From: an uncultured Chloroflexia bacterium
GTDB taxonomy: Bacteria > Chloroflexota > Limnocylindria > Limnocylindrales > CSP1-4
Length of the DNA: 64,000 bases
Assembly (NCBI GenBank): GCA_963833225.1
Contig: CAWHXD010000006.1
Location: 256,001 to 320,000, forward strand
Direction of reading: 5' to 3'
This document shows positions 5,848 to 16,603 of the stretch, in pieces. The notes under the pieces were generated by a model that saw nothing but the letters and a program-made list of their open reading frames with translations, ran no database searches and had not been told where the DNA came from. A program made the position numbers and the translations under genes. Positions within the stretch are counted from its first letter, which is position 1. Each line of letters begins with the position of its first letter.

Positions 5848-6186
5848 TCAGCGGGCGGCAGCCAGCGCGGCGGTCTCGTCGTCGTGGATCGCGATCGCCT
5901 CGTCGAGGCGGGTCAGCTCGAGGATCTGCTTGTAGTGGTCAGACAGTCCGACGGCGAGCAGCTTCTGACCGGCGCGCTGGGCCCGGACGAGGAGCGTCAC
6001 CAGGAGGCCGATCCCGCCCGAGTTCATGTACTCGAGCTGGCCGAAGTCGAGGACGATCGAACGGGCGTCGCCGGCCTCTGCGTAGGCCGCCATGATCGGC
6101 GGCTCGCTGCCGCCCGTGATCTCGCCGTGGATTCGGAGGATCGCGGTCGACCCATCGCGGGTCACGTCGACGGTTGTGTCGGTCAT
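5848..6186 (-). CDS. STAS-domain anti-anti-sigma factor (RsbV/SpoIIAA-like) 2
   Basis: IVLDFGQLEYMNSGGIGLLV...ILELTRLD; phosphorylatable Ser present. Confidence 0.9.
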   Translation of the reverse strand: MTDTTVDVTRDGSTAILRIHGEITGGSEPPIMAAYAEAGDARSIVLDFGQLEYMNSGGIGLLVTLLVRAQRAGQKLLAVGLSDHYKQILELTRLDEAIAIHDDETAALAAAR

Positions 6187-6545
6187 CGTGCTGCCTCCTC
6201 TGGGACGCTGGATGCCGACGCGCCGTCGGCGATCGTGAGGTAGTCGGACAGGCGCGTGATCCGGAAGATCTCGCGGTAGTGGTCGGACAGACCGAGCGCG
6301 ATCACGTCACGGTGGTCGCGGCGGGCCTCCGCCAGGAGCCGGACGATGAGCGCGATGCCCGTCGAGTTGATGTAGTCCACGTCGCCGAAGTCGAGGATGA
6401 CGCGTGTCGCGCCGGTGCCGGCGGCCTGGGCGTATGCCGCGGCGAGGGCCTCGTCCGCGGCGATGTCCACGTCTCCCCGCATCTCCAGACGGGCCTCGCC
6501 GGGGGTCGTGGCAACAACCTCGACCGTCAACCGCTCCTTGCTCAT
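6183..6545 (-). CDS. STAS-domain anti-anti-sigma factor 1
   Basis: GDVDI...VILDFGDVDYINSTGIALIV...IFRITRL. SD AAAGGAGG before ATG 6545; ATGA overlap with the next gene. Confidence 0.9.
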   Translation of the reverse strand: MSKERLTVEVVATTPGEARLEMRGDVDIAADEALAAAYAQAAGTGATRVILDFGDVDYINSTGIALIVRLLAEARRDHRDVIALGLSDHYREIFRITRLSDYLTIADGASASSVPEEAAR

Positions 6546-6561
6546 GACGACCTCCTTTGGG

Positions 6562-8220
6562 TCAGCGCCCATCACGGGCGACGGTGAGCGTCACGGTCTG
6601 CATGCCGTCCGCGGCGTGCACGTCCATGCCGTCCACCATGTGGCGGATCAGGAACAAGCCCCAGCCGCGCGGCTTCTGACGGCCCTCAAGCTTCGCGTCG
6701 AGGTCGGGCATCTCGGCGTCGGGGACTGGTCCGGACAGCGCCCGGTCGGTCACGCGGACGCGGATCGTCTCGTGGTCCGCGTCCACGCGGACGTCAACGG
6801 GCACCTCTGGATTGCCCTGGGACCCGTACTCGATGGCATTCATCACGGTCTCGGCGACCGCGGTCTTGAGGCGCTCGAGGCGCGCCGGCCCGAGGTGGAG
6901 CGGCTCGACGGCCGCGGCCACCCGCTGCATGGCGGCGCGCTCGTTGCCGATGGCGCCTTCGATGGTGAAGGCGAGCAGCGGCTTGGCGTGGTCGACCCCC
7001 TCCGACGCGGCAGCGACCGGCTCCTGGTCACGGGTCACCGGGACCTCGGGACGGTTCTCAGCCCAGGCGTCAGAGGTGCCGATCGAGCGGCGCAGGGTCA
7101 CCAGCGTGATGTCGTCCTCCTGCTCCATGCCGGGTCCCGTGAAGGCGTGGAGCTCCTCGAGCAGGCGGTCGAGCAGCGCGCTTCCGGCGTCGTCAGTCGC
7201 CATTGCCTCGCGCAGGCGCGGGAAGCCGTACATCTCGCGGCCCGGTCCGTGCTGTTCCACGAGGCCGTCCGAGTAGAGCAGCATCGCCTCGCCCTGGCCG
7301 ACGAAGCCCTCCGTCTCCTCGTACGCGATGCCCGGCATGAGGCCGAGCGGGAGGCCGGTCGCCCGCAGCTCGATCACCCCGTCTGTCGTGCGCACGTACG
7401 GGAGGTTGTGACCGGCATTCGCGAACACGAAGCGGCCGGTCGCCGGTTCCAGGACGCCGTACAGGCAGGTCACGAACATGCGGGCGGGCATCTCCGGGGC
7501 AAGCAGTTCGTTCGCGCGGGCGAGGACCTTGCCGGGCTCGACGAGCCGTGGCGCCTCGGCCCGGAGGATCGAGTGTGTGCGGGCCATGACGAGGGCCGCC
7601 GGGACGCCCTTGTCGGTGACGTCGCCGACGACGACACCGATGCGGCCCTCGCCAAGGTCGATGAAGTCGTAGAAGTCGCCACCGACCACGCGTGCTGGTC
7701 CGTAGTAGGCGGCGATCTGCCACTCGGGCAGGTTTGGCAGCTCGTGCGGGAGGAACTGCTGCTGGATCAGCTGCGCGACCTTGAGCTCCTGCTCGAAGCG
7801 TTCGCGCTCGGCGGCCTCGGCGGCCTGCTCGCGAACCAGCTGGGCGACGCGGATGGCGGGCGCGGCCTGCGCGGCGAGCGTTGCCAGGAGCCGGCGGTCG
7901 TCCGAGGAGTAATCCTGCTCGGACAGGCGGGGACCGAGATTGAGCGTGCCGATCAGCTCGCCCTGGGTGACGAGCGGCACCACGAGCGCCACGCCGGCCT
8001 CGCGCAGCTCCGTCAGGGCCGTCGATGCCAGCTCGAGACGGGACAGGTCGACCGGCCCGGGCGCCGACTGGAGGTACGCGAACAGCGGATCCGTCTCCGG
8101 GATCTCGATCGCCACACCTGGCTGCTCGGCGGGCGCGGCGGGCATCGTGAGGGCGATGTCGGTCGCGTCCGGGGCGGGCCGGCGGCGGAAGCGGCGGAAG
8201 GGGCGGGTCAGAGCGGTCAT
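6562..8220 (-). CDS. SpoIIE/RsbU-type PP2C phosphatase with N-terminal partial GAF domain and C-terminal RsbW-like HATPase (Ser kinase) domain
   Basis: VGGDFYDF, GDVTDKGVPAALVMA, NAGHNLP, LYSDGLVE and EDDITLV (PP2C). AETVMNAIEYG...GWGLFLIRHMVD (HATPase_c_2). N-terminal LVVPLVTQGELIGTLNLG...DRRLLATLA (GAF C-half). Confidence 0.9.
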   Translation of the reverse strand: MTALTRPFRRFRRRPAPDATDIALTMPAAPAEQPGVAIEIPETDPLFAYLQSAPGPVDLSRLELASTALTELREAGVALVVPLVTQGELIGTLNLGPRLSEQDYSSDDRRLLATLAAQAAPAIRVAQLVREQAAEAAERERFEQELKVAQLIQQQFLPHELPNLPEWQIAAYYGPARVVGGDFYDFIDLGEGRIGVVVGDVTDKGVPAALVMARTHSILRAEAPRLVEPGKVLARANELLAPEMPARMFVTCLYGVLEPATGRFVFANAGHNLPYVRTTDGVIELRATGLPLGLMPGIAYEETEGFVGQGEAMLLYSDGLVEQHGPGREMYGFPRLREAMATDDAGSALLDRLLEELHAFTGPGMEQEDDITLVTLRRSIGTSDAWAENRPEVPVTRDQEPVAAASEGVDHAKPLLAFTIEGAIGNERAAMQRVAAAVEPLHLGPARLERLKTAVAETVMNAIEYGSQGNPEVPVDVRVDADHETIRVRVTDRALSGPVPDAEMPDLDAKLEGRQKPRGWGLFLIRHMVDGMDVHAADGMQTVTLTVARDGR

Positions 8221-8289
8221 CGGCGCCATCCTCGTGGTTGAGCGTTCGCGCATCGTTACGAAGTTGGTCCTGGTTGGCTGATCGTTGCG
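8221..8289 (-). promoter_or_regulatory. Putative SARP-type activated leaderless promoter of the phosphatase/STAS operon
   Basis: Minus strand reads CGCAACG-N22-CGTAACG-N6-GAACG-N9-GAGGAT-N7-ATGACCG. Same layout at 13698-13767. Confidence 0.6.
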
Positions 8290-9446
8290 TTACGCAGCCA
8301 GACCGACACTCCGGCAGGGCGGACGGCCTCGTCGGCCGAGGCGGCCAGCGTGCCGCGCAGGGTCACGAGGTCCAGCTCGTCGCGGAGGCGCTCGGCGAAA
8401 TCGTCGATCGTCTGCTGCGCGTCGACGCGGCTCCGGTCGAAGCGCCGGTCGACGGCCGCCTGGACGCGCCGCCGGAGGGGCTGGAACAGGGCGAACGCGG
8501 CGAGCGTTGAGGCCGCCACCGCCAGGGTTCCCCCCTGTGTGACACCCGACAGCAGCGCCTGCAGCGCGACCACCAGGCCACCGAACACGACGGCCAGGAG
8601 CGCGGTGACCGCGACGTACGAGACGGACCGGCTGACGATCCGGTCGATGTCGTACAGGTGGTAGCGACGGATCGCGACCCCGATGGCAGCTGGGATCATG
8701 GGGTACGCGATCACGGCCGGGAGCCACATCCAGGTGCCGTTGGCATCAACAAGGAAGATCATGGTGAACGCGAAGACCACGGCCGACAGGGTCGCCGCGA
8801 GCGCGGCGAGCAGCCACTTGTACTGGGCCCGCGCGGTGCCCCGGGCCCGGCGGAATCGGACGACGAGGGCTCCGATCGCGACCGCGAGGGCCGCGAGAAC
8901 GCCGATGTAGACGAGGTTGTCCAGCATCGGCCAGCCGGGCCAGTCGGGCATGACCGCGAGCGGCAGGAGAACCCGCGCCGTCGACCCGTCGGTGAAGGTG
9001 ACCTGCCAACTCGGCGCGAACGCCAGAACGGCGCTGAAGCCGAGCGGGATGGCCACCGCGATCCGCCCCGCCACGCCGACCCGCCCCGCCGAGAACCGCC
9101 CGGTCGGGAACAGCGTCGCGAGCGCGACGAACAGGCCGAAAAAGAGGCTCGCGCTCCACGCGCTCAACCAGGCGTAGAAGGTGACTCCCGCGTCAGCGTG
9201 GCCGTCGACAACCTGGGACGCGGAGCCCGGGAGCGTGTTCCCGAGCGCGGAGAAGGCGAAGGCGATGCCCAGCAGGAGCCAGCCGACCACCTCTCGTGGC
9301 CGCCGCCAGAGCAGGACCAGGCCCACGGCGGCGAACGAGCCGACGATCAGCCAGCCAGACCAGTCCTGATGGGCCCAGGCCGAGGGCGCGAGGACGAGCA
9401 CTGCGAGGATGCAATACGGGATGACCCGCCATCGTTCGAGCTTCAT
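8256..9446 (-). CDS. Multi-pass membrane sensor-like protein, cassette 4 (ends in GAF N-half; no output domain)
   Basis: Many hydrophobic helices. Shared C-terminal block RYHLYDIDRIVSR...LAVAASTL..FALFQPLRRRVQAAVDRRFDR...ERLRDELDL...VRPAGVSVWLR. Confidence 0.85.
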   Translation of the reverse strand: MKLERWRVIPYCILAVLVLAPSAWAHQDWSGWLIVGSFAAVGLVLLWRRPREVVGWLLLGIAFAFSALGNTLPGSASQVVDGHADAGVTFYAWLSAWSASLFFGLFVALATLFPTGRFSAGRVGVAGRIAVAIPLGFSAVLAFAPSWQVTFTDGSTARVLLPLAVMPDWPGWPMLDNLVYIGVLAALAVAIGALVVRFRRARGTARAQYKWLLAALAATLSAVVFAFTMIFLVDANGTWMWLPAVIAYPMIPAAIGVAIRRYHLYDIDRIVSRSVSYVAVTALLAVVFGGLVVALQALLSGVTQGGTLAVAASTLAAFALFQPLRRRVQAAVDRRFDRSRVDAQQTIDDFAERLRDELDLVTLRGTLAASADEAVRPAGVSVWLRNATISQPGPTS

Positions 9447-10696
9447 GCCGTGCCTCCCCGGGTTGGCCGGATCCAGACGCCGGCTCCGCTCGGTCCGAGC
9501 GCCCGTGCGACCGTGTCAACGGCGCCGGCTTGGATCTCGTCGAGGTCGGTGACACCCCGGAGGTGCTCCGCGTACGCCTCGACGGTCCGCGCGGCGTCGT
9601 AGCGACGGCGGTTGAACCGCTGGTCGACGGCCGCCTGGATGCGTCGTCGAACGGGCTGGAAGACGGCCGCGGCCCCCAGGGTTGAGGCCGCGACGGCCAG
9701 GCTGCTCTCGCTGGCCAGCGGGGCGAGCAACGCCTGGAGGGCGACGATGAGTCCGGCGAACAGCGCCGCGATCAGACCGGTGGTGAGGGCCCACGAGATG
9801 GTCCGGCTGATGATCCGGTCGATCTCGTACAGGCGATAGCGGAGCACGGCGATCCCGATCGCGATCGGGACGCACGGGATGGCGACGATCGGGCCGATCC
9901 AGGCCAGGCCCGACTCGCTCGCGCCCGGGACGAGCGCGCTGACGACGAACCCCGCCAGCACGCCGGCGATGACGAGGCCGAGCGCCGCCGAGATCCAGCG
10001 GAGCTGCTGGCGCTCGAGGCCGGTGGTCCGGCGATAGCGGACGAAGAGCGAAGCGACCGAGCCGGCGAGGAGGACGACGAACGGGAGGACCGCCGTATCC
10101 GGCGTGACCAGTTGCCACACTGGCAGCTGGGGGAGGACCGCCAACGGGTTGCGCACACCCACGCTGGTCGACGCCCCGTTCAAGCTGACGGGAATCTTCG
10201 GCATGAACATGGCCGTCACTGCAACGGCGAGGCAGAGCCCGAGGGCAAGCCGGGCGACGATCCCCCACCGGCCGGTGGGCGGGCGCCCGGACGGAAAGAC
10301 CATCGACAGCACCGCCAGCAGGAAGAACAGCATGAGCCCGGACTGCGCCTGCACGACGGCAATGCCGGCGGCGGTCGGGCTCACGCTGCCGTCGTCGAAC
10401 TGCGCCGCGGTCGCAGGGACCGTCGACAGGATCAGCACGAAGCCCCAGCTCAGCGCGACCAGGATCCAGCCGATCGAGGTGCCCGGGCGCCGGACGGCGA
10501 GGAGCGTCCCCACGCCCGCGTAGGGCACGAACCAGATCAGGCCGATCCCACTCGGCGCGGCGGCGATCGCCCCGAGACCGAACAGGGCAACCAGCAGGAC
10601 ACGCGCGGGCGGCCCCAGCGGCGCTACGGCTTCGATGGCGCCTGCCGCGCTCGCCGGTCCCGGGACGACACGCCAGCGGCGCGCGGCCCCGGTCAC
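9443..10696 (-). CDS. Multi-pass membrane sensor-like protein, cassette 3
   Basis: Same conserved C-terminus (RYRLYEIDRIISR...EHLRGVTDL...LGPSGAGVWIR). GTG 10696 is in frame and overlaps a TGA. Confidence 0.8.
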   Translation of the reverse strand: MTGAARRWRVVPGPASAAGAIEAVAPLGPPARVLLVALFGLGAIAAAPSGIGLIWFVPYAGVGTLLAVRRPGTSIGWILVALSWGFVLILSTVPATAAQFDDGSVSPTAAGIAVVQAQSGLMLFFLLAVLSMVFPSGRPPTGRWGIVARLALGLCLAVAVTAMFMPKIPVSLNGASTSVGVRNPLAVLPQLPVWQLVTPDTAVLPFVVLLAGSVASLFVRYRRTTGLERQQLRWISAALGLVIAGVLAGFVVSALVPGASESGLAWIGPIVAIPCVPIAIGIAVLRYRLYEIDRIISRTISWALTTGLIAALFAGLIVALQALLAPLASESSLAVAASTLGAAAVFQPVRRRIQAAVDQRFNRRRYDAARTVEAYAEHLRGVTDLDEIQAGAVDTVARALGPSGAGVWIRPTRGGTA

Positions 10697-10776
10697 GACC
10701 GGTCCCCTCGAACCAATGCGAGGCTGAAGCCGATTGAGCGTGAGCTGGGCGGTATCGGCGGACGTGACGCCATCAT
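10693..10776 (-). CDS. 27-aa bridging ORF (MMASRPPIPPSSRSIGFSLALVRGDRS) between cassettes 2 and 3
   Basis: Its ATG overlaps the stop of 10773-11999 and its TGA overlaps GTG 10696. No recognisable domain. Confidence 0.35.
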   Translation of the reverse strand: MMASRPPIPPSSRSIGFSLALVRGDRS

Positions 10777-11999
10777 CGCGTGGTTCCTTGCTGGCGGGTC
10801 CAGACGGCCACCGACCGGGGCTGCATCGAGCGCCCGACCACCGTCTCGAGGTGTGCGTTGAGGGTGTCGAGGGCCGTATCGTCGCGCAGCCCGGCGGCGA
10901 ACCCGTCGAGGACGCGCTGGGCATCGATGTGCGCCCGATTGAACCTGCGGTCGACCGCTGTCTGGACGCGCCGACGCAATGGCTGGAACAGGGTGAAGGC
11001 GACCAGCGTCGCCGCGGCGACCGAGACCGTGCTCTGGCCGGTCAGCGGGCTCAACAGCTCCTGCAGCCCGACGACGGTCACGGCGAACATGACCGCGAGC
11101 ATGGCGCTGATGATCAGATAGCTGATGCTGCGGCTGACAATCCGGTCGATATCCCACAGCCGGTAGCGGAGGACCGCGACACCGGCCGAGATCGGGATGC
11201 CCAGGATGGCTGCGGTGACCACGATCTCGGTGAGCTTGGCGGCGCCCGGTGGCATGGCGCCGAGCTTGGCCAACGGGATGACCCAGAACACGAGACCACA
11301 GACCGCGACGCTGAACGCGAGCCACTTGAGCTGCTGACGGCTCTCCCCGGTGGCGCGGCGGAACCGGAGCGCGAGGGCGCTCGCGCCGATGAAGATGGCG
11401 ACGATGAGCGGCAGGTAGGCGATCCATCGCAGCTCGGGCCGGATCGCGATCTCGATGGCGAACGGATTGGACAGGTAGGAGGCGTTGTCGAGGGGCCCCG
11501 GCAGCACGGCGGCACCCAGTGCCGCGAGCGCCACCACACCGACATCGAGCCGAACGATCGGGCGCCAACGCGAGCTCAGCAGGCGTCCATCCGGGAACAC
11601 GAGCGGCAGGAACACGGTCACGAGCGCGATGGCCGGGATCCAGATCCAGCCGGCAAGCCAGGCTGCGACGTCTCCTCCCGCATGGGCGCCCGGCTCGGCG
11701 ATGAGGGCCAGTGCCGCGTACTGATCACACGCGCCCTCGACAGCCGACAGGATCGCGGCGGCCAGGAACAGCCACCCGATCGGATTCCCACGGACGCGGA
11801 CCACCACGATGGCTCCGATCGCCACGCAGGTGCCCGCGATCACGATCGGAAATCCGCGGACCGACCAGGTGCCCGGGACCTCCACCGACCAGGTCGCCGC
11901 GAGCAGGCCGATGCCAATGGTGCACAGCATGCCCGTGAACACGATGCTGGCTGCAGCGGCCAGCCTGGGCAGGAAGGAGCGCACCGCAATCGGGTTCAC
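10773..11999 (-). CDS. Multi-pass membrane sensor-like protein, cassette 2
   Basis: GNPIGWLFL, LVFPDGRLLSSRWR, ESRQQLKWLA, RYRLWDIDRIVSR...GLRDDTAL...MQPRSVAVWTR. GTGA overlap at 11996-11999. Confidence 0.85.
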   Translation of the reverse strand: MNPIAVRSFLPRLAAAASIVFTGMLCTIGIGLLAATWSVEVPGTWSVRGFPIVIAGTCVAIGAIVVVRVRGNPIGWLFLAAAILSAVEGACDQYAALALIAEPGAHAGGDVAAWLAGWIWIPAIALVTVFLPLVFPDGRLLSSRWRPIVRLDVGVVALAALGAAVLPGPLDNASYLSNPFAIEIAIRPELRWIAYLPLIVAIFIGASALALRFRRATGESRQQLKWLAFSVAVCGLVFWVIPLAKLGAMPPGAAKLTEIVVTAAILGIPISAGVAVLRYRLWDIDRIVSRSISYLIISAMLAVMFAVTVVGLQELLSPLTGQSTVSVAAATLVAFTLFQPLRRRVQTAVDRRFNRAHIDAQRVLDGFAAGLRDDTALDTLNAHLETVVGRSMQPRSVAVWTRQQGTTR

Positions 12000-12301
12000 G
12001 GCGTTCCCCGTCGGGCTCGAAGCCACAGCGCGACACCCGAGGGCTCGATCACCTGTCCGACCGTCGCAGCGGTGTTCTGTGATTCGGCGACCAGATCGAC
12101 GACGGTCTCGAAGAACAGCACAAACGCAACGAGCAGCCAGCCGACGATCTCTCGGGGTCGCGGACAGGTGAGGAACAGGCCGACTCCAGCGAACGACCCG
12201 GTGACCAAGACGTCACTGACTTCGACGCTTGACAACAGCGCGGGCGCGACGATGAGCACCGCGATCGCCGGGTAGGGCACCGCCCGCACCGCGACCCTCA
12301 T
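11996..12301 (-). CDS. Internally shortened paralogous cassette (101 aa; N-terminal TM helices joined in frame to the terminal VIEPSGVALWLR strand)
   Basis: VPYPAIAVL...GSFAGVGLFL..PRPREIVGWLL matches the N-terminus of 8256-9446; the end matches the family C-terminus. Coupled on both sides. Confidence 0.6.
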   Translation of the reverse strand: MRVAVRAVPYPAIAVLIVAPALLSSVEVSDVLVTGSFAGVGLFLTCPRPREIVGWLLVAFVLFFETVVDLVAESQNTAATVGQVIEPSGVALWLRARRGTP

Positions 12302-13533
12302 CCCTCCGCCGCCGGGCGCACCCAGACCGCAACCGATCCCGGGTGGAGAGCCTCGTGCACCGTGGTTGCGATGTCAGCCTCCACCGAGGCGAGATCCACC
12401 CGGTCGCGCAGCCGCTCGCCGAACGCGGTCACCACACGCTCCCCGTCGTACCGGGCCCGGTCGAACCGCCTGTCCACCGCTCGCTGGACCCGCCGGCGCA
12501 GCGGGGCGAAGAGCGCGAACGCCACCAGCGTGGAGGCCGCCACCGCGAGCGTCTGCCCCTGCGTGAACCCGGCGAGGACCCCCTGGAGCCCGACGACGAG
12601 CCCGGCGAACACCGCGACGAGCAGGCCCGTCACCAGTGCCCAGCCGATCGTGCGGCTGATGATCCGGTCGATCTCGTACAGCCGGTACCGGAGGATCGCG
12701 GCGCCGATCGCCATCGGAAACAGGGTCCACGAGATCCCGACGGCCAGGTCACCGACCTCCGAGTAGCCGTTCGGTCCGGCCTCCGCACCGTAGGTGACCA
12801 TGGCTGCCGTGACAAGCGAGGCGGCTGCGGCGACCCACTTGAGCTGCGCCCGCTCGAGTGCTCCGGAACGCCGCCAGCGTCCGACGAGCGACAGCGCGGC
12901 GAGCCCGATGCACAGCACGGTCAGCCCATAGACGCCCTCCCAGATCGCCCAGAGCGGAGTCGGTGGCGGCGCCAGCGGATTCTCCAGCCACGTGTAGTAC
13001 GGGAAGGCGCCGGGCCGCAGGGCCGCCCCGCAGAACACCAGCGTGGCGAAGAGCGCAGTCGATCCAACCAGCCACCGCCACCGTGGTGAGGGCAGGTGCC
13101 CGTCGGGGAACACCAGGAACAGCAGTGCGATGGCGAGGAAGAGCGGACCGTCCATGAGGCTGATCAAGAGCGCCGCCAGGGCGATGCCGGGCATGGGTTC
13201 GGGGTGGCGGATGTACGCGTCGAGGACGACGTACCCTGCGAGCGGGAACCCGATGGCGAGCACGAGCGGCCCGACGACGTTGCCGGGCCGGCGGACCGCG
13301 ATCAGCCACCCGACGACGAGGAACGTGATCGTCGCGACGAGGAAGACGAGACCGAGGACTGTTGGCGTCGTGTCGTCCAGCAGCCGGGCCAACGTCGCAA
13401 TCGAGGCCACGAGGACGGTCAGGCCGACGATCAAGGCCTGCAGCTGGCGGGCGACGTGGCGCTTGGGCGGAGCCTGACCCGCCTGTGACCTGAAGTCCGC
13501 TCCCGAACCCCGTGCCACGGCACGCTCGCTCAT
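12298..13533 (-). CDS. Multi-pass membrane sensor-like protein, cassette 1
   Basis: RRPGNVVG, LVFPDGHLPSPRWR, ERAQLKWVA, RYRLYEIDRIISR...GERLRDRVDL...LHPGSVAVWVR. ATG 13533 with GGGGAG upstream. Confidence 0.85.
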   Translation of the reverse strand: MSERAVARGSGADFRSQAGQAPPKRHVARQLQALIVGLTVLVASIATLARLLDDTTPTVLGLVFLVATITFLVVGWLIAVRRPGNVVGPLVLAIGFPLAGYVVLDAYIRHPEPMPGIALAALLISLMDGPLFLAIALLFLVFPDGHLPSPRWRWLVGSTALFATLVFCGAALRPGAFPYYTWLENPLAPPPTPLWAIWEGVYGLTVLCIGLAALSLVGRWRRSGALERAQLKWVAAAASLVTAAMVTYGAEAGPNGYSEVGDLAVGISWTLFPMAIGAAILRYRLYEIDRIISRTIGWALVTGLLVAVFAGLVVGLQGVLAGFTQGQTLAVAASTLVAFALFAPLRRRVQRAVDRRFDRARYDGERVVTAFGERLRDRVDLASVEADIATTVHEALHPGSVAVWVRPAAEG

Positions 13534-13697
13534 GTCGTCTCCCCGGACCCGCGACACAGCCACACGCCGATCCTGGTCGGCAGCACCGCCGCTTCGACCG
13601 TCGCCCGAGCATCGCGGCCGATGGTCGGCAGATCCACCTCGCCACGGAGGCGTTCGCCCGGGAAGAGCAGCGCCAGTGCGATGCGGGACGCGGTCAT
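13530..13697 (-). CDS. 55-aa microprotein consisting almost solely of the cassette C-terminal (GAF N-half) module
   Basis: Hand translation MTASRIALALLFPGERLRGEVDLPTIGRDARATVEAAVLPTRIGVWLCRGSGETT*. Matches GERLRDRVDLASVEADIATTVHEALHPGSVAVWVR. ATGA overlap with 13533. Confidence 0.7.
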   Translation of the reverse strand: MTASRIALALLFPGERLRGEVDLPTIGRDARATVEAAVLPTRIGVWLCRGSGETT

Positions 13698-13767
13698 GGC
13701 ACCCGATGGTGAGGGCGGGTCGTTCCCAAAACGTTACGGGATTCGGCGCCGAAGTTGTACCGTTGCG
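13698..13767 (-). promoter_or_regulatory. Putative SARP-type operator/promoter for the cassette array, overlapping the -10 of the divergent regulator
   Basis: Minus strand reads CGCAACG-N22-CGTAACG-N6-GAACG-N9-CACCAT-N8-ATGACCG. TACCGT at 13758-13763 on the + strand lies 8 nt before regulator ATG 13772. Confidence 0.6.
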
Positions 13768-13771
13768 CGAC

Positions 13772-16603
13772 ATGTCACTTGACATCCGCGTTCTCGGCCC
13801 CCTCGAGGTCCACGTGGACGGCGAGCCGATCCGCGTGGACACGCGGAAGGCCCAGGCGATCGTCGCCGTGCTCGCGGTTGAACGGCGTCCCTATGCGCGC
13901 GATGAGCTGGCGGCACTGTTCTGGCCCGAGTCGGGCGACGAGTCGGCACGGAACGCGCTGCGACGGACCCTGTCCGTGCTTCGCGCGGCGCTCGGCGGAC
14001 GGTGGCTGCGCGTCGATCGTGCGACGGTGGCGCTCGCCGATCACGGTGACGGCGTGTGGCTGGACCTGGCCGTGCTCGAGGGAGCGGCGGAAGCGGGCGG
14101 GCATTCCGCGCTCACCGACGCGGCGGCGCTTGCCCGGGGGCCCTTTCTCGCCGGCTTCTCACTCCGCGACAGCCCGGATTTCGATGACTGGCACGCGACC
14201 CGGGCGGTTACCGTTGAACGGCGGATCGTGGACGTCCTCGAGCGGCTTGTCTCAGCAGCGGAGTCCGCCGGCGACACCGCGGCCGCCATCACGGCGGCTA
14301 CCCGGCTCGTGGAGCTGAACCCGCTCGACGAGCCGGCGCGCCGACGCCTCATGACCGCTCTTGCCCGCAGCGGTGACCGGGCCGCGGCGATCCGCCAATA
14401 CCGTGCGACCGTCGCGATGCTCGAGCGCGAGCTCGGCGTGAGCCCGCTCGCCGAGACCACGGCGGCCTACGAGGCGATCCGTGACGAACGGCTCGGTCCC
14501 GTCGTGACCGCTGCGGCGGCAGTTGCTGCCACGGGCCCAGAGCCGCCACCGGCTGCGGCCGCGTCACCGCCCCGGCTGCCATTGACGGGTCGCCGCCTGG
14601 AGTTTAAATCACTCCGCGCTGCGCGCCGCTCATCGTCGCCGGACGGGCGAGTCGCCGTCCTCACCGGCGAGGCCGGGATCGGCAAGTCCCGCCTCGCGGA
14701 GGCGCTTCTCGCGGAGGCGGTCGCCGACGAAGGTGTGGTGCTCACCGCACGCGCCTTCCCGGCCGAGGGATCGATCGCCTACGCCCCAATCGTGGAGCTG
14801 CTCCGTTCGGGCTTCGCCCACCAGGATGCGGCTCGCCGCCTGGCCGATGTCCCACCGGGGATCCTCGCAGAGGTGGGGCGGCTCGTGCCCATGCCCGATC
14901 ACGTGACCGCGGGCACCGCGACGGCGGGATCTCCCAATTCACCCGCGGCGCGCGCCCGGCTGCTCGATGCCGTTGCCACGGTCCTCGCCGCGATCGTCCA
15001 CGCCCCCGCTCCGGGCATCGTCGCCGTCGAGGACCTGCAATGGGCGGACAGTGCGTCGAGGGAGGCGATCCTGTACCTGGCCCGGCGGCTGGCCGGGCGA
15101 CCGATGCTCCTCCTCGTCACGTGGCGACCCGAGGACCTGGAGGCCGCCGCCACGACGTTTGCGGATTCCCTCGAGAGCCTTCCGGGCGTGACGTCGATTC
15201 GGCTGGAGCGGCTGGATGACGTTGTCGTCGGTGCGCTCGTCGAGTCAGCGGTCGCCGCGGGCCTGCCACGCTGGGACGCGGCGGCGCTGGCCGCGGAGTC
15301 GGAGGGGCTTCCGCTGTACGTCGTCGAAGCGCTCATGGCGGGTCCCGGAGCGGTTGGGCACAATCCCCCGCGAGGCGTTCGTGCGCTCCTGCACGAGCGT
15401 CTGTCGACCGCTTCCGGGACCGCGAGCCAGGTTCTCGCCGCGGCGGCGGTGATCGGACGCTCGTTCGACTTCGGGACCGTCCGGGCAGCCAGCGGTCGCG
15501 CCGAGGACGAGACCGTCACCGCGCTCGAGGAGCTTGTCCAGCGGGGGATCGTCCGCGAGCTCGCCGGAACCGGCGAGCCGGCGTTCGACTTCGCCCACGC
15601 GCGGCTGCGTGACGCCGCGTACGAGGCCATCGGGACGGCACGGCGCCGGCTGCTCCACCGGCGAGTGGCCGATGCGCTGGGCGCCGATGCGGCCGGTCGC
15701 GACAACCCGGGCCGCCTCGCCAAGATCGCAGGTCATGAGCGGGCCGCAGGTCGCGACGCGGCCGCCGCGGAGGCATACCGGGAGGCAGGACGCGGATCGC
15801 GGCGGGTCTACGCGAACCGGGAGGCGCTGGCGCATCTCGAGATGGCCCTCGCCCTCGGGCACCCGGACGTCGCGGGACTGCAGGTGGCGATCGGCGAGAC
15901 GCGGACCGCGCTCGGCAACTACGCGGGAGCGATTGCGGCATTCGAAGCGGCCGCGGGTCTCGTGTCGGACGCGGCCCTGCCGGAGATCGAGCTGCGACTG
16001 GGCCAGGTCCACGCGCGACGCGGCGATGTGGCAACCGCCGCGAGCCACCTGGATGCGGCGCTGGAGGGCGCCGACGACCGGCTTCGGCCAGCCGTGCTGG
16101 TGGAGCAGGGCGCAGTCGCATTCAGGGCGGACGAGCTGGACGCGGCCGTCTCGTTCGCGAGCACTGCCCTGGGTGCCATCACCGGCACGGAGGACGCGAG
16201 GACGACGGGTGCCGCCAGTCGTCTCCTGGGCCTCGTGGCCCTCCGGCGCGGAGACCTCGACGCGGCGCGGGAGGCCCTTCGGTCGGCCGTCGCTGCGGCG
16301 GACCAGAGCGCGGAACCCAGCGCATCGATCGCAGCCCGCAACGGGCTCGCGCTCGTGGAGGCTGCCGCGGGCCACCGGGACGCGGCGATCACCTTGCTCG
16401 AGGAGGCCCTGGCCGAGTGCCGGCGGACGGGCGAGACGCACCTCGAGGCGGCGGTCGAGAACAACCTCGCCGACCAGCTGCACGCCGTCGGCCGCACGGA
16501 GGAGGCGATGGATCACCTCAAACGTGCCGTGGCCCTGTTCGCCGAGGTCGGCGGGCGGCCGGGCGAGCTTGAGCCCGAGATCTGGAAGCTTGTCTCCTGG
16601 TAG
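13772..16603 (+). CDS. SARP/AfsR-like transcriptional regulator: wHTH + BTAD + AAA/STAND NTPase + TPR repeats
   Basis: IRVLGPLEV...RDELAALFWPE...ARNALRRTL; BTAD GPFLAGF...PLDEPARRRLM; Walker A GEAGIGKS; Walker B VEDLQWAD; FDFAHARLRDAAY; helical repeats. Confidence 0.9.
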   Translation: MSLDIRVLGPLEVHVDGEPIRVDTRKAQAIVAVLAVERRPYARDELAALFWPESGDESARNALRRTLSVLRAALGGRWLRVDRATVALADHGDGVWLDLAVLEGAAEAGGHSALTDAAALARGPFLAGFSLRDSPDFDDWHATRAVTVERRIVDVLERLVSAAESAGDTAAAITAATRLVELNPLDEPARRRLMTALARSGDRAAAIRQYRATVAMLERELGVSPLAETTAAYEAIRDERLGPVVTAAAAVAATGPEPPPAAAASPPRLPLTGRRLEFKSLRAARRSSSPDGRVAVLTGEAGIGKSRLAEALLAEAVADEGVVLTARAFPAEGSIAYAPIVELLRSGFAHQDAARRLADVPPGILAEVGRLVPMPDHVTAGTATAGSPNSPAARARLLDAVATVLAAIVHAPAPGIVAVEDLQWADSASREAILYLARRLAGRPMLLLVTWRPEDLEAAATTFADSLESLPGVTSIRLERLDDVVVGALVESAVAAGLPRWDAAALAAESEGLPLYVVEALMAGPGAVGHNPPRGVRALLHERLSTASGTASQVLAAAAVIGRSFDFGTVRAASGRAEDETVTALEELVQRGIVRELAGTGEPAFDFAHARLRDAAYEAIGTARRRLLHRRVADALGADAAGRDNPGRLAKIAGHERAAGRDAAAAEAYREAGRGSRRVYANREALAHLEMALALGHPDVAGLQVAIGETRTALGNYAGAIAAFEAAAGLVSDAALPEIELRLGQVHARRGDVATAASHLDAALEGADDRLRPAVLVEQGAVAFRADELDAAVSFASTALGAITGTEDARTTGAASRLLGLVALRRGDLDAAREALRSAVAAADQSAEPSASIAARNGLALVEAAAGHRDAAITLLEEALAECRRTGETHLEAAVENNLADQLHAVGRTEEAMDHLKRAVALFAEVGGRPGELEPEIWKLVSW

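Follow-up and report, generated by a model that had tools for sequence, protein, structure and literature searches.

What is a 55-codon open reading frame (ORF) doing at the head of an array of genes for membrane sensors? The question arises in a 64,000-nt stretch of genome from an uncultured Chloroflexota bacterium (GenBank assembly GCA_963833225.1, contig CAWHXD010000006.1, forward-strand positions 256,001 to 320,000). We call the whole stretch the window and use its coordinates throughout. Four paralogous sensor genes, here called cassettes, lie there ahead of a single phosphatase gene, and the micro-ORF stands directly in front of cassette 1 (Table 1). The initial annotation described it as a hidden microprotein consisting only of a docking half-domain, which would act as a sensor-less competitor or constitutive activator of the phosphatase, and named an in-frame deletion remnant as the alternative. 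That alternative turns out to be the better reading, as relatives carry a full-length gene from the same ATG. With moderate confidence, we favour the view that the micro-ORF is what an in-frame deletion left of a leading sensor cassette that was once full-length, with an open frame that would be non-polar on the genes behind it. The peptide itself gives no sign of being a selected product.

The translation from ATG 13697 is exactly as first annotated. An in-frame TAA lies 13 codons 5' of this ATG and no alternative start intervenes (sequence reading). At its other end, the stop codon and the ATG of cassette 1 share the tetranucleotide ATGA at 13533-13530, so the junction with cassette 1 was also correctly described. 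The ORF is not hidden, since the exact 55-residue sequence is already in a public protein collection under NCBI/ENA. Its residues 14-49 are homologous to the C-terminal tails of all four cassettes. In BLASTP comparisons, 15 of 34 positions are identical to the cassette 1 tail (E 3e-7), and the cassette 4 tail also matches (E 6e-6). A hidden Markov model (HMM) of the full cassette matches the same residues at profile positions 369-404 (i-E 1.4e-6), and the claimed homology therefore stands. The tail pattern of the family, ERLR-x-EVDL ... P ... VW(L/I)R, is recognisable except for Cys in place of Arg after WL. The rest of a cassette is missing: the cassette HMM and the alignment find nothing of the multi-pass membrane region of about 300 residues, and neither the RYRLY-x-IDR motif nor the RRRVQ-x2-VDRRF linker lies within the 55 residues. 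By homology the micro-ORF covers approximately profile positions 2-28 of a GAF domain; it has no match to the Pfam models PF01590, PF13185 and PF13492 and contains no complete GAF fold. An RNA element is not indicated either. An Rfam scan of 13300-14000 gave no matches at E up to 1, and the predicted fold of 13480-13740 is less stable than those of shuffled sequences (z-score +1.46), giving no indication of a structured leader.

We compared the array head with 36 loci of relatives, represented by one genome per species. These genomes are related to each other, and several assemblies contain many frameshifts, possibly sequencing errors. The locus is conserved in the genus as a regulator gene, the array, the phosphatase gene and two STAS genes, with one further ORF in relatives. 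The start of the array could be placed in 33 loci (two of them by hand) and was left unplaced in three (G084, G047 and G075). The start of the micro-ORF and the region upstream of it are orthologous to the array head in congeners. A leader motif, CGTAACG-N6-GAACG, lies 40 nt upstream of the ATG and is conserved across the genus; its distance to the ATG is exactly 40 nt in 21 of 31 relatives. The first codons of the array read MTAS(R/P), and CATCCGGTGCC is conserved directly before the ATG in the intergenic regions of relatives. DNA similarity between the window and the relatives ends 12-25 nt into the micro-ORF, that is, between 13672 and 13685.

What follows the conserved start differs from species to species. 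It opens a full-length or apparently full-length cassette in 16 of the 33 relatives, a frameshifted cassette in four (G017, G058, G064 and G072), and a short ORF of 8-107 residues in 13. Among the three nearest relatives as judged by the regulator gene, G062 (83% nucleotide identity) and G071 (87% amino acid identity) belong to the first of these groups, and the cassette of G058 (79% nucleotide identity) is frameshifted. Full-length genes at this position, together with the lack of the short version elsewhere, were what the initial annotation had named as evidence against a microprotein. The second expectation was borne out as well. The same short form is present in none of the 33 congeners, scans of metagenome contigs and of species-representative genomes returned no relative of the 55-residue protein, and the protein database yields a single relative, a 54/55 variant (A3V) on a 1919-bp contig of separate origin, which we count as a strain variant of the same lineage; no other species has it. 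The proposed competitor or activator is left without comparative support.

The array as a whole is in flux: relatives carry from 2 to at least 8 cassettes as well as remnants and gaps, while the phosphatase remains 70-90% identical. Cassette orthologues, in contrast, are only 50-57% identical. Within the arrays of relatives (loci L049-L068) we observed frameshifted copies, tail-only pieces (G009.2, G085.3 and one in G001) and gaps of 0.7-0.95 kb in which no cassette is recognisable; the phosphatase, the two STAS genes and the ORF that follows are conserved there.

We suggest that the array evolves as a birth-and-death system in which deletions of the leading cassette or cassettes would, time and again, place a new junction close behind the conserved start. 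In the window, such a junction would have landed in frame within a tail, leaving an ORF of 55 codons. The stub would then retain the array start (upstream motif, ATG and MTASR), a short junction segment and approximately the last 42 cassette codons. The latter would comprise the tail, which corresponds to GAF helix 1 and strand 1, along with the ribosome-binding site and the ATGA overlap that serve cassette 1; a Shine-Dalgarno-like GGGGAG is present at 13539-13544, within the final codons of the stub. Since the ancestral start is inherited, the stub is probably still translated. Ribosomes passing through an in-frame stub would reach the ATGA junction, and cassette 1 and the genes behind it would be spared polarity; the frame may persist open because in-frame stubs avoid such effects. 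The micro-ORF carries the features expected of a non-polar stub: it opens at a start codon of its own within a conserved initiation region, and its stop codon overlaps the start of the following gene. The end points of the deletion are ones we infer. The junction segment may be a piece of the lost cassette, from either its N-terminus or its LxFPxG region, or may resemble these by chance, as judged by eye against type-A N-termini of relatives. The initial annotation had derived the N-terminal piece of the remnant from LxFPxG. A resemblance exists, with 7 of 12 positions shared between residues 6-17 and the LxFPxG region of cassette 4, in one pairwise comparison that is weak and not significant (E 0.072). 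The full-cassette HMM has no match in the junction segment, and the conserved MTASR start accounts better for the beginning of the ORF.

The short head ORFs of relatives differ in length and sequence, and none is orthologous to the stub in the window. Many full-cassette tails resemble the tail of the latter more closely than any other stub does: the best match is the tail of G006.3 (21/38), and G020, the best among other stubs, reaches only 9/21. What the head stubs have in common is the conserved start in front and, mostly, a stop/start overlap at the back: 9 of the 12 that we examined (all of the 13 short ORFs except G063) overlap the next ORF through ATGA, GTGA or TGATG. This next ORF is a cassette in every case except G061, where a second short ORF intervenes. 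We scored the tails with a dedicated tail HMM. The 78 full-cassette tails on which the model was trained, and whose scores are thereby inflated, have a mean of 60.3 (standard deviation 5.8) and a minimum of 44.4; the stub in the window, which is without the first three profile positions, scores 43.1. The other head stubs range from 45.7 down to –0.7 in a graded series of decay. Recognisable tails are found in G048 (45.7 bits) and G020 (25.1 bits), nothing recognisable is left on this model in G085, G023, G015 and G070, and the head ORF of G019 retains only about the last 13 residues, which are closest to the tail of orf101 (Table 1) and not to our stub. In addition, the stub has Cys at the position where at least 90% of 50 aligned tails have Arg. 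The lowered score and the Arg-to-Cys change point to relaxed constraint on the tail.

Three candidate relationships were rejected. The head stub of G020 (54 residues, before a cassette-1-type gene) might be taken for a shared short gene; its DNA matches at 90 of 168 positions with gaps, and the proteins are similar only at the tail end. The stub tail could not be assigned to a cassette type, as type-A tails from the nearest relatives, with 11-19 identical residues, are poorer matches than G006.3, and no DNA similarity to the first cassette of G062 is detectable. Finally, 622 proteins shorter than 226 residues that match residues 330-411 of cassette 1 might have formed a microprotein family, and they look like cut or frameshifted genes: eight that we inspected begin inside the last membrane helix, and many of 120 listed lie on contigs of about 1 kb.

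Several observations weigh against the interpretation as an in-frame, non-polar remnant. At 70% G+C, a 55-codon frame is open by chance with a probability that we estimate at about 0.4, and openness alone is weak evidence for selection. With a ribosome-binding site of its own, cassette 1 does not have to rely on coupling, and because a copy of the leader precedes the phosphatase as well, polarity may matter only for the cassettes. There is no ancestral sequence on which break points could be mapped, and the comparison draws on mutually related genomes, one per species, with several frameshift-rich assemblies among them. The scoring of the tail must also be set beside signs of preservation. Three of four near-invariant tail residues (R18, P40 and W46) are kept, and the G+C content at third codon positions is coding-like (0.84, compared to 0.78-0.90 for the four cassette tails); both features fit a recent deletion and continuing constraint alike. 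An independent metagenome contig encodes the ORF intact, with one amino acid change. Moreover, tail-bearing mini-ORFs recur, at the heads of G020, G048, G019 and G061 and inside the arrays of G009, G085 and G001. Four species retain a tail of the orf101 type, and over 29 nt the window and G009 do not differ even at synonymous sites. This could mean that tails are selected in their own right; the identity at the nucleotide level suggests either constraint on the DNA or gene conversion. The orf101 tail (…ATVGQVIEPSGVALWLR..GTP) is found just before a cassette-2-type gene in G009 (115-residue ORF), G019 (46-residue head ORF) and G061 (53-residue ORF), at loci L054, L052 and L048.

The frequency of open frames at this G+C content, the separate ribosome-binding site of cassette 1 and the lack of an orthologue outside the lineage would all be expected if the micro-ORF were a purely neutral and recent relic, a young deletion whose frame is open for want of time and of which neither the translation nor the peptide matters. 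Variation among close strains would add to this. One contig, 97.4% identical to the window over 13682-14298, loses its match directly past codon 5, 11 nt before its own end; as far as one contig end can tell, this hints that the sequence past MTASR varies even between close strains. We nevertheless regard a neutral relic as unlikely. A random frame would be expected to end in a stop/start overlap in one case out of three, and 9 of 12 head stubs do so exactly, although the tally was made post hoc on related genomes and cannot include in-frame fusions to the following gene. The tail score, lower than that of any of the 78 full tails, likewise speaks against a very young deletion. As a separate observation, contigs from two public runs, which match the regulator start and intergenic region at 97.4% and 87% identity, both lose their similarity to the window right after codon 4-5, at 13682 and 13684; these positions may mark a recurrent rearrangement junction or may be mere contig ends.

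The idea of a half-domain has a firmer basis than that of a microprotein. In longer proteins of the database, a membrane region resembling a cassette precedes a complete GAF domain, which leads into a PP2C or histidine-kinase output. In one of these, P0072, the GAF domain is at 440-580 (Pfam) and the stretch equivalent to the tail at 438-468. The alignment of cassette 4 with P0072 extends to residue 450; that of the phosphatase begins at residue 465 and shows 35% identity over 384 residues. In such single-chain homologues the tail and the phosphatase N-terminus are thus adjacent, non-overlapping parts of one GAF domain, and to this extent the initial annotation was right. The GAF matches of the phosphatase start only at profile positions 42-49, with the first approximately 40 positions missing. 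In its AlphaFold model, residues 1-44 are disordered and a partial fold without helix 1 and strand 1 follows; the best Foldseek matches of the model are all GAF domains, albeit weak ones (E 4e-3 or worse). By sequence comparison, then, the cassette tail is the first approximately 28 positions (helix 1 and strand 1) of a GAF domain, the remainder of which is encoded at the N-terminus of the downstream phosphatase. Across 6562-13533 on the minus strand, each cassette ends after GAF helix 1 and strand 1. "Docking half-domain" is a fair label for the tail, and that the two pieces dock is what we infer from this arrangement. Co-folding of phosphatase residues 1-150 (11-row alignment) with the micro-ORF (50-row alignment) gave a score of 0.28 against a mark of 0.32; it was run without controls and was counted neither for nor against binding. 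In a full-text literature search, the titles and opening lines of abstracts contained no paper on a "split GAF domain" and nothing on this system.

A free helix-1/strand-1 piece would have an obvious target in such a split domain, and a functional microprotein could dock into the incomplete GAF of the phosphatase, either competing with the membrane sensors or completing the domain constitutively. This possibility draws on the adjacency of the two parts in single-chain homologues, on the absence of the first approximately 40 profile positions from the phosphatase GAF and of helix 1 and strand 1 from its model, on the recurrence of tail-bearing mini-ORFs in the genus, and on the orf101-type tail conserved in four species. 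The ORF is also the first after a conserved leader, keeps most of the conserved tail residues and is intact in a second assembly. We still consider it improbable: none of the 33 congeners that have the locus carries a conserved orthologue, and roughly half of them have a full sensor in its place, the stub sequences are unlike each other and decay in a graded manner, and a near-invariant Arg has been replaced by Cys. A bolder proposal, which we regard as a long shot, is a split-domain device in which the phosphatase would fold or become active only when the GAF helix and strand of a sensor are inserted in trans. Tail-only stubs would then be natural fragment-complementation peptides: completing or blocking the GAF domain with no sensor attached, they would determine the basal output of the partner-switching module. 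Least credible of all is an assembly artefact, a collapse of tandem paralogues joining the array head to a later tail: tandem paralogues do tend to collapse, and the genome is assembled in 20 contigs at 86% completeness, but the separately assembled contig of another source encodes the ORF at 54/55 identity, a 151-nt contig of one other run matches 13514-13664 without a difference, and the paralogues, about 40% identical in protein, are too divergent to collapse.

Table 1. Coordinates of the micro-ORF, its parts and the surrounding features in the window
Feature	Position	Strand	Description
55-codon micro-ORF	13530..13697	minus	ATG 13697 to TGA 13530; 55 residues, ATG start, in ORF listing
Codons 1-5 (MTASR)	13683..13697	minus	Conserved array-head start, orthologous to first-cassette start in relatives
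Codons 6-13 (IALALLFP)	13659..13682	minus	Junction segment, uncertain origin
Codons 14-49 (GERLRGEVDL...VWLCR)	13551..13658	minus	Tail; counterpart of GAF helix 1 and strand 1
Last six codons and stop	13530..13550	minus	Holds GGGGAG and the ATGA overlap (sequence reading)
Cassette 1	12298..13533	minus	411-residue multi-pass membrane sensor paralogue with C-terminal tail
orf101	11996..12301	minus	101 residues; cassette N-terminal membrane piece fused to tail
Cassettes 2, 3 and 4	8256..12026	minus	Paralogues of cassette 1
Phosphatase	6562..8253	minus	563 residues; N-terminally incomplete GAF, SpoIIE-type PP2C, HATPase_c_2 kinase-like domain
Two STAS-domain genes	5848..6575	minus	Anti-sigma-antagonist-like (domain search)
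BTAD / AAA_16 / TPR regulator gene	13772..16603	plus	Divergent, SARP/AfsR-like (domain search); conserved beside array in relatives
First conserved intergenic motif, CGCAACGGTAC (CGTAACGGTAC in relatives)	13757..13767	minus	Adjoins regulator start codon; conserved in aligned intergenic regions
Leader motif CGTAACG-N6-GAACG	13721..13738	minus	40 nt 5' of micro-ORF ATG; conserved across genus
Second copy of CGTAACG-N6-GAACG	8243..8260	minus	39-40 nt upstream of phosphatase ATG 8220

The minus-strand genes form a single tightly packed operon in the order stub, cassette 1, orf101, cassettes 2-4, phosphatase and the two STAS genes. The cassette family has no Pfam model, and the paralogues within the window are only about 40% identical in protein. 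orf101 is a second in-frame remnant in the array. For cassette 3, a 493-residue ORF is listed; homology to the cassette HMM begins approximately 330 nt past its ATG at 10924, the extension overlaps the end of cassette 2, and the true start is probably well downstream of 10924 (region 10595-10924, minus strand). The phosphatase start at ATG 8253 is probably also annotated too far upstream (region 8218-8253, minus strand). Met12 (ATG 8220) is the likely true start, because the residues invariant in 11 orthologues begin there (MTA.TRPFRR); a GAGGA resembling a ribosome-binding site precedes it. Homologues of the phosphatase with 54-59% identity are also present in metagenome-assembled genomes of Actinomycetota.

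The micro-ORF had further been called the first gene after a predicted promoter. It is indeed the first ORF past the divergent regulator gene, with a gap of 74 nt. The promoter part of the claim fared less well: a consensus scan of 13400-13900 found no sigma-70 promoter sites or terminators, and the conserved motif 40 nt upstream of the ATG stands there instead. In the 64-kb window, CGTAACG-N6-GAACG followed about 40 nt later by ATGACCGC (protein MTA...) occurs exactly twice, at the array head and at the phosphatase. The two 66-nt leaders align at 44 of 72 positions, a score reached by 0 of 2000 shuffles, and the copy at the phosphatase is conserved in all 15 genomes compared. Judging from this alignment, the array head appears to duplicate the leader and start that belong to the phosphatase. 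The motif may be a promoter or a regulator site, possibly shared by both copies. An extra CGTAACG, at 8288-8294 (minus strand), codes for the Arg-Asn-Ala of WLRNAT in the cassette 4 tail. The element may thus be embedded in coding sequence just 5' of the phosphatase leader, since the last cassettes of several relatives read WLRNVS or WVRNVS at this position.

The closest comparable proteins are the single-chain membrane-sensor/GAF/SpoIIE phosphatases and membrane-sensor/GAF/HisKA_3 histidine kinases (P0072, P0064, P0029 and others). The cassettes are homologous to their sensor, linker and GAF start, and the phosphatase to the rest of the GAF domain and the PP2C domain. Here, in contrast, the chain is cut inside the GAF domain, with the sensor half present as several tandem genes and the output half once, and the micro-ORF has only the GAF start of about 36 residues and no sensor. 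In the partner-switching system of Bacillus, RsbR paralogues act with RsbT and RsbU, so that several paralogous sensors feed one PP2C phosphatase. The operon in the window likewise combines multiple paralogous inputs, one PP2C, STAS proteins and an HATPase_c_2 kinase-like domain. Unlike RsbR, the inputs are membrane proteins without STAS domains, and their link to the phosphatase would be the split GAF domain; no sigma factor gene was identified in the operon.

In the plant literature, microProteins are small single-domain derivatives of larger proteins that titrate the partners of their relatives, and the known ones are conserved genes with shown dominant-negative activity. The micro-ORF resembles them in being short, in descending from a multi-domain protein and in retaining nothing of it but a putative interaction piece. 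It differs in having no orthologue outside its lineage and a function that is only putative. In-frame (non-polar) deletion alleles and translationally coupled upstream ORFs are also known in operons. As in such alleles, start and frame are preserved here up to a 4-nt stop/start overlap, an arrangement that recurs in 9 of the 12 stubs of relatives. Unlike them, the micro-ORF arose naturally in a tandem paralogue array, and the dependence of downstream genes on it is putative.

Taken alone, the micro-ORF is an ordinary by-product of tandem-array turnover, and showing this prevents its being over-read as a designed regulator. Its context is more interesting. In a family of uncultured Chloroflexota (Chloroflexia / Ca. 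Limnocylindrales), 2 to at least 8 rapidly evolving sensor genes end inside a GAF domain, the rest of which is on one highly conserved PP2C/kinase protein with two STAS partners; the operon around the stub is an unusual and possibly novel signalling operon. The recurrent in-frame stubs illustrate how operon polarity may shape which gene remnants survive. If the two halves do assemble in trans, the operon would amount to a multiplexed split-domain sensor of natural origin, with the stubs as informative natural mutants of it.

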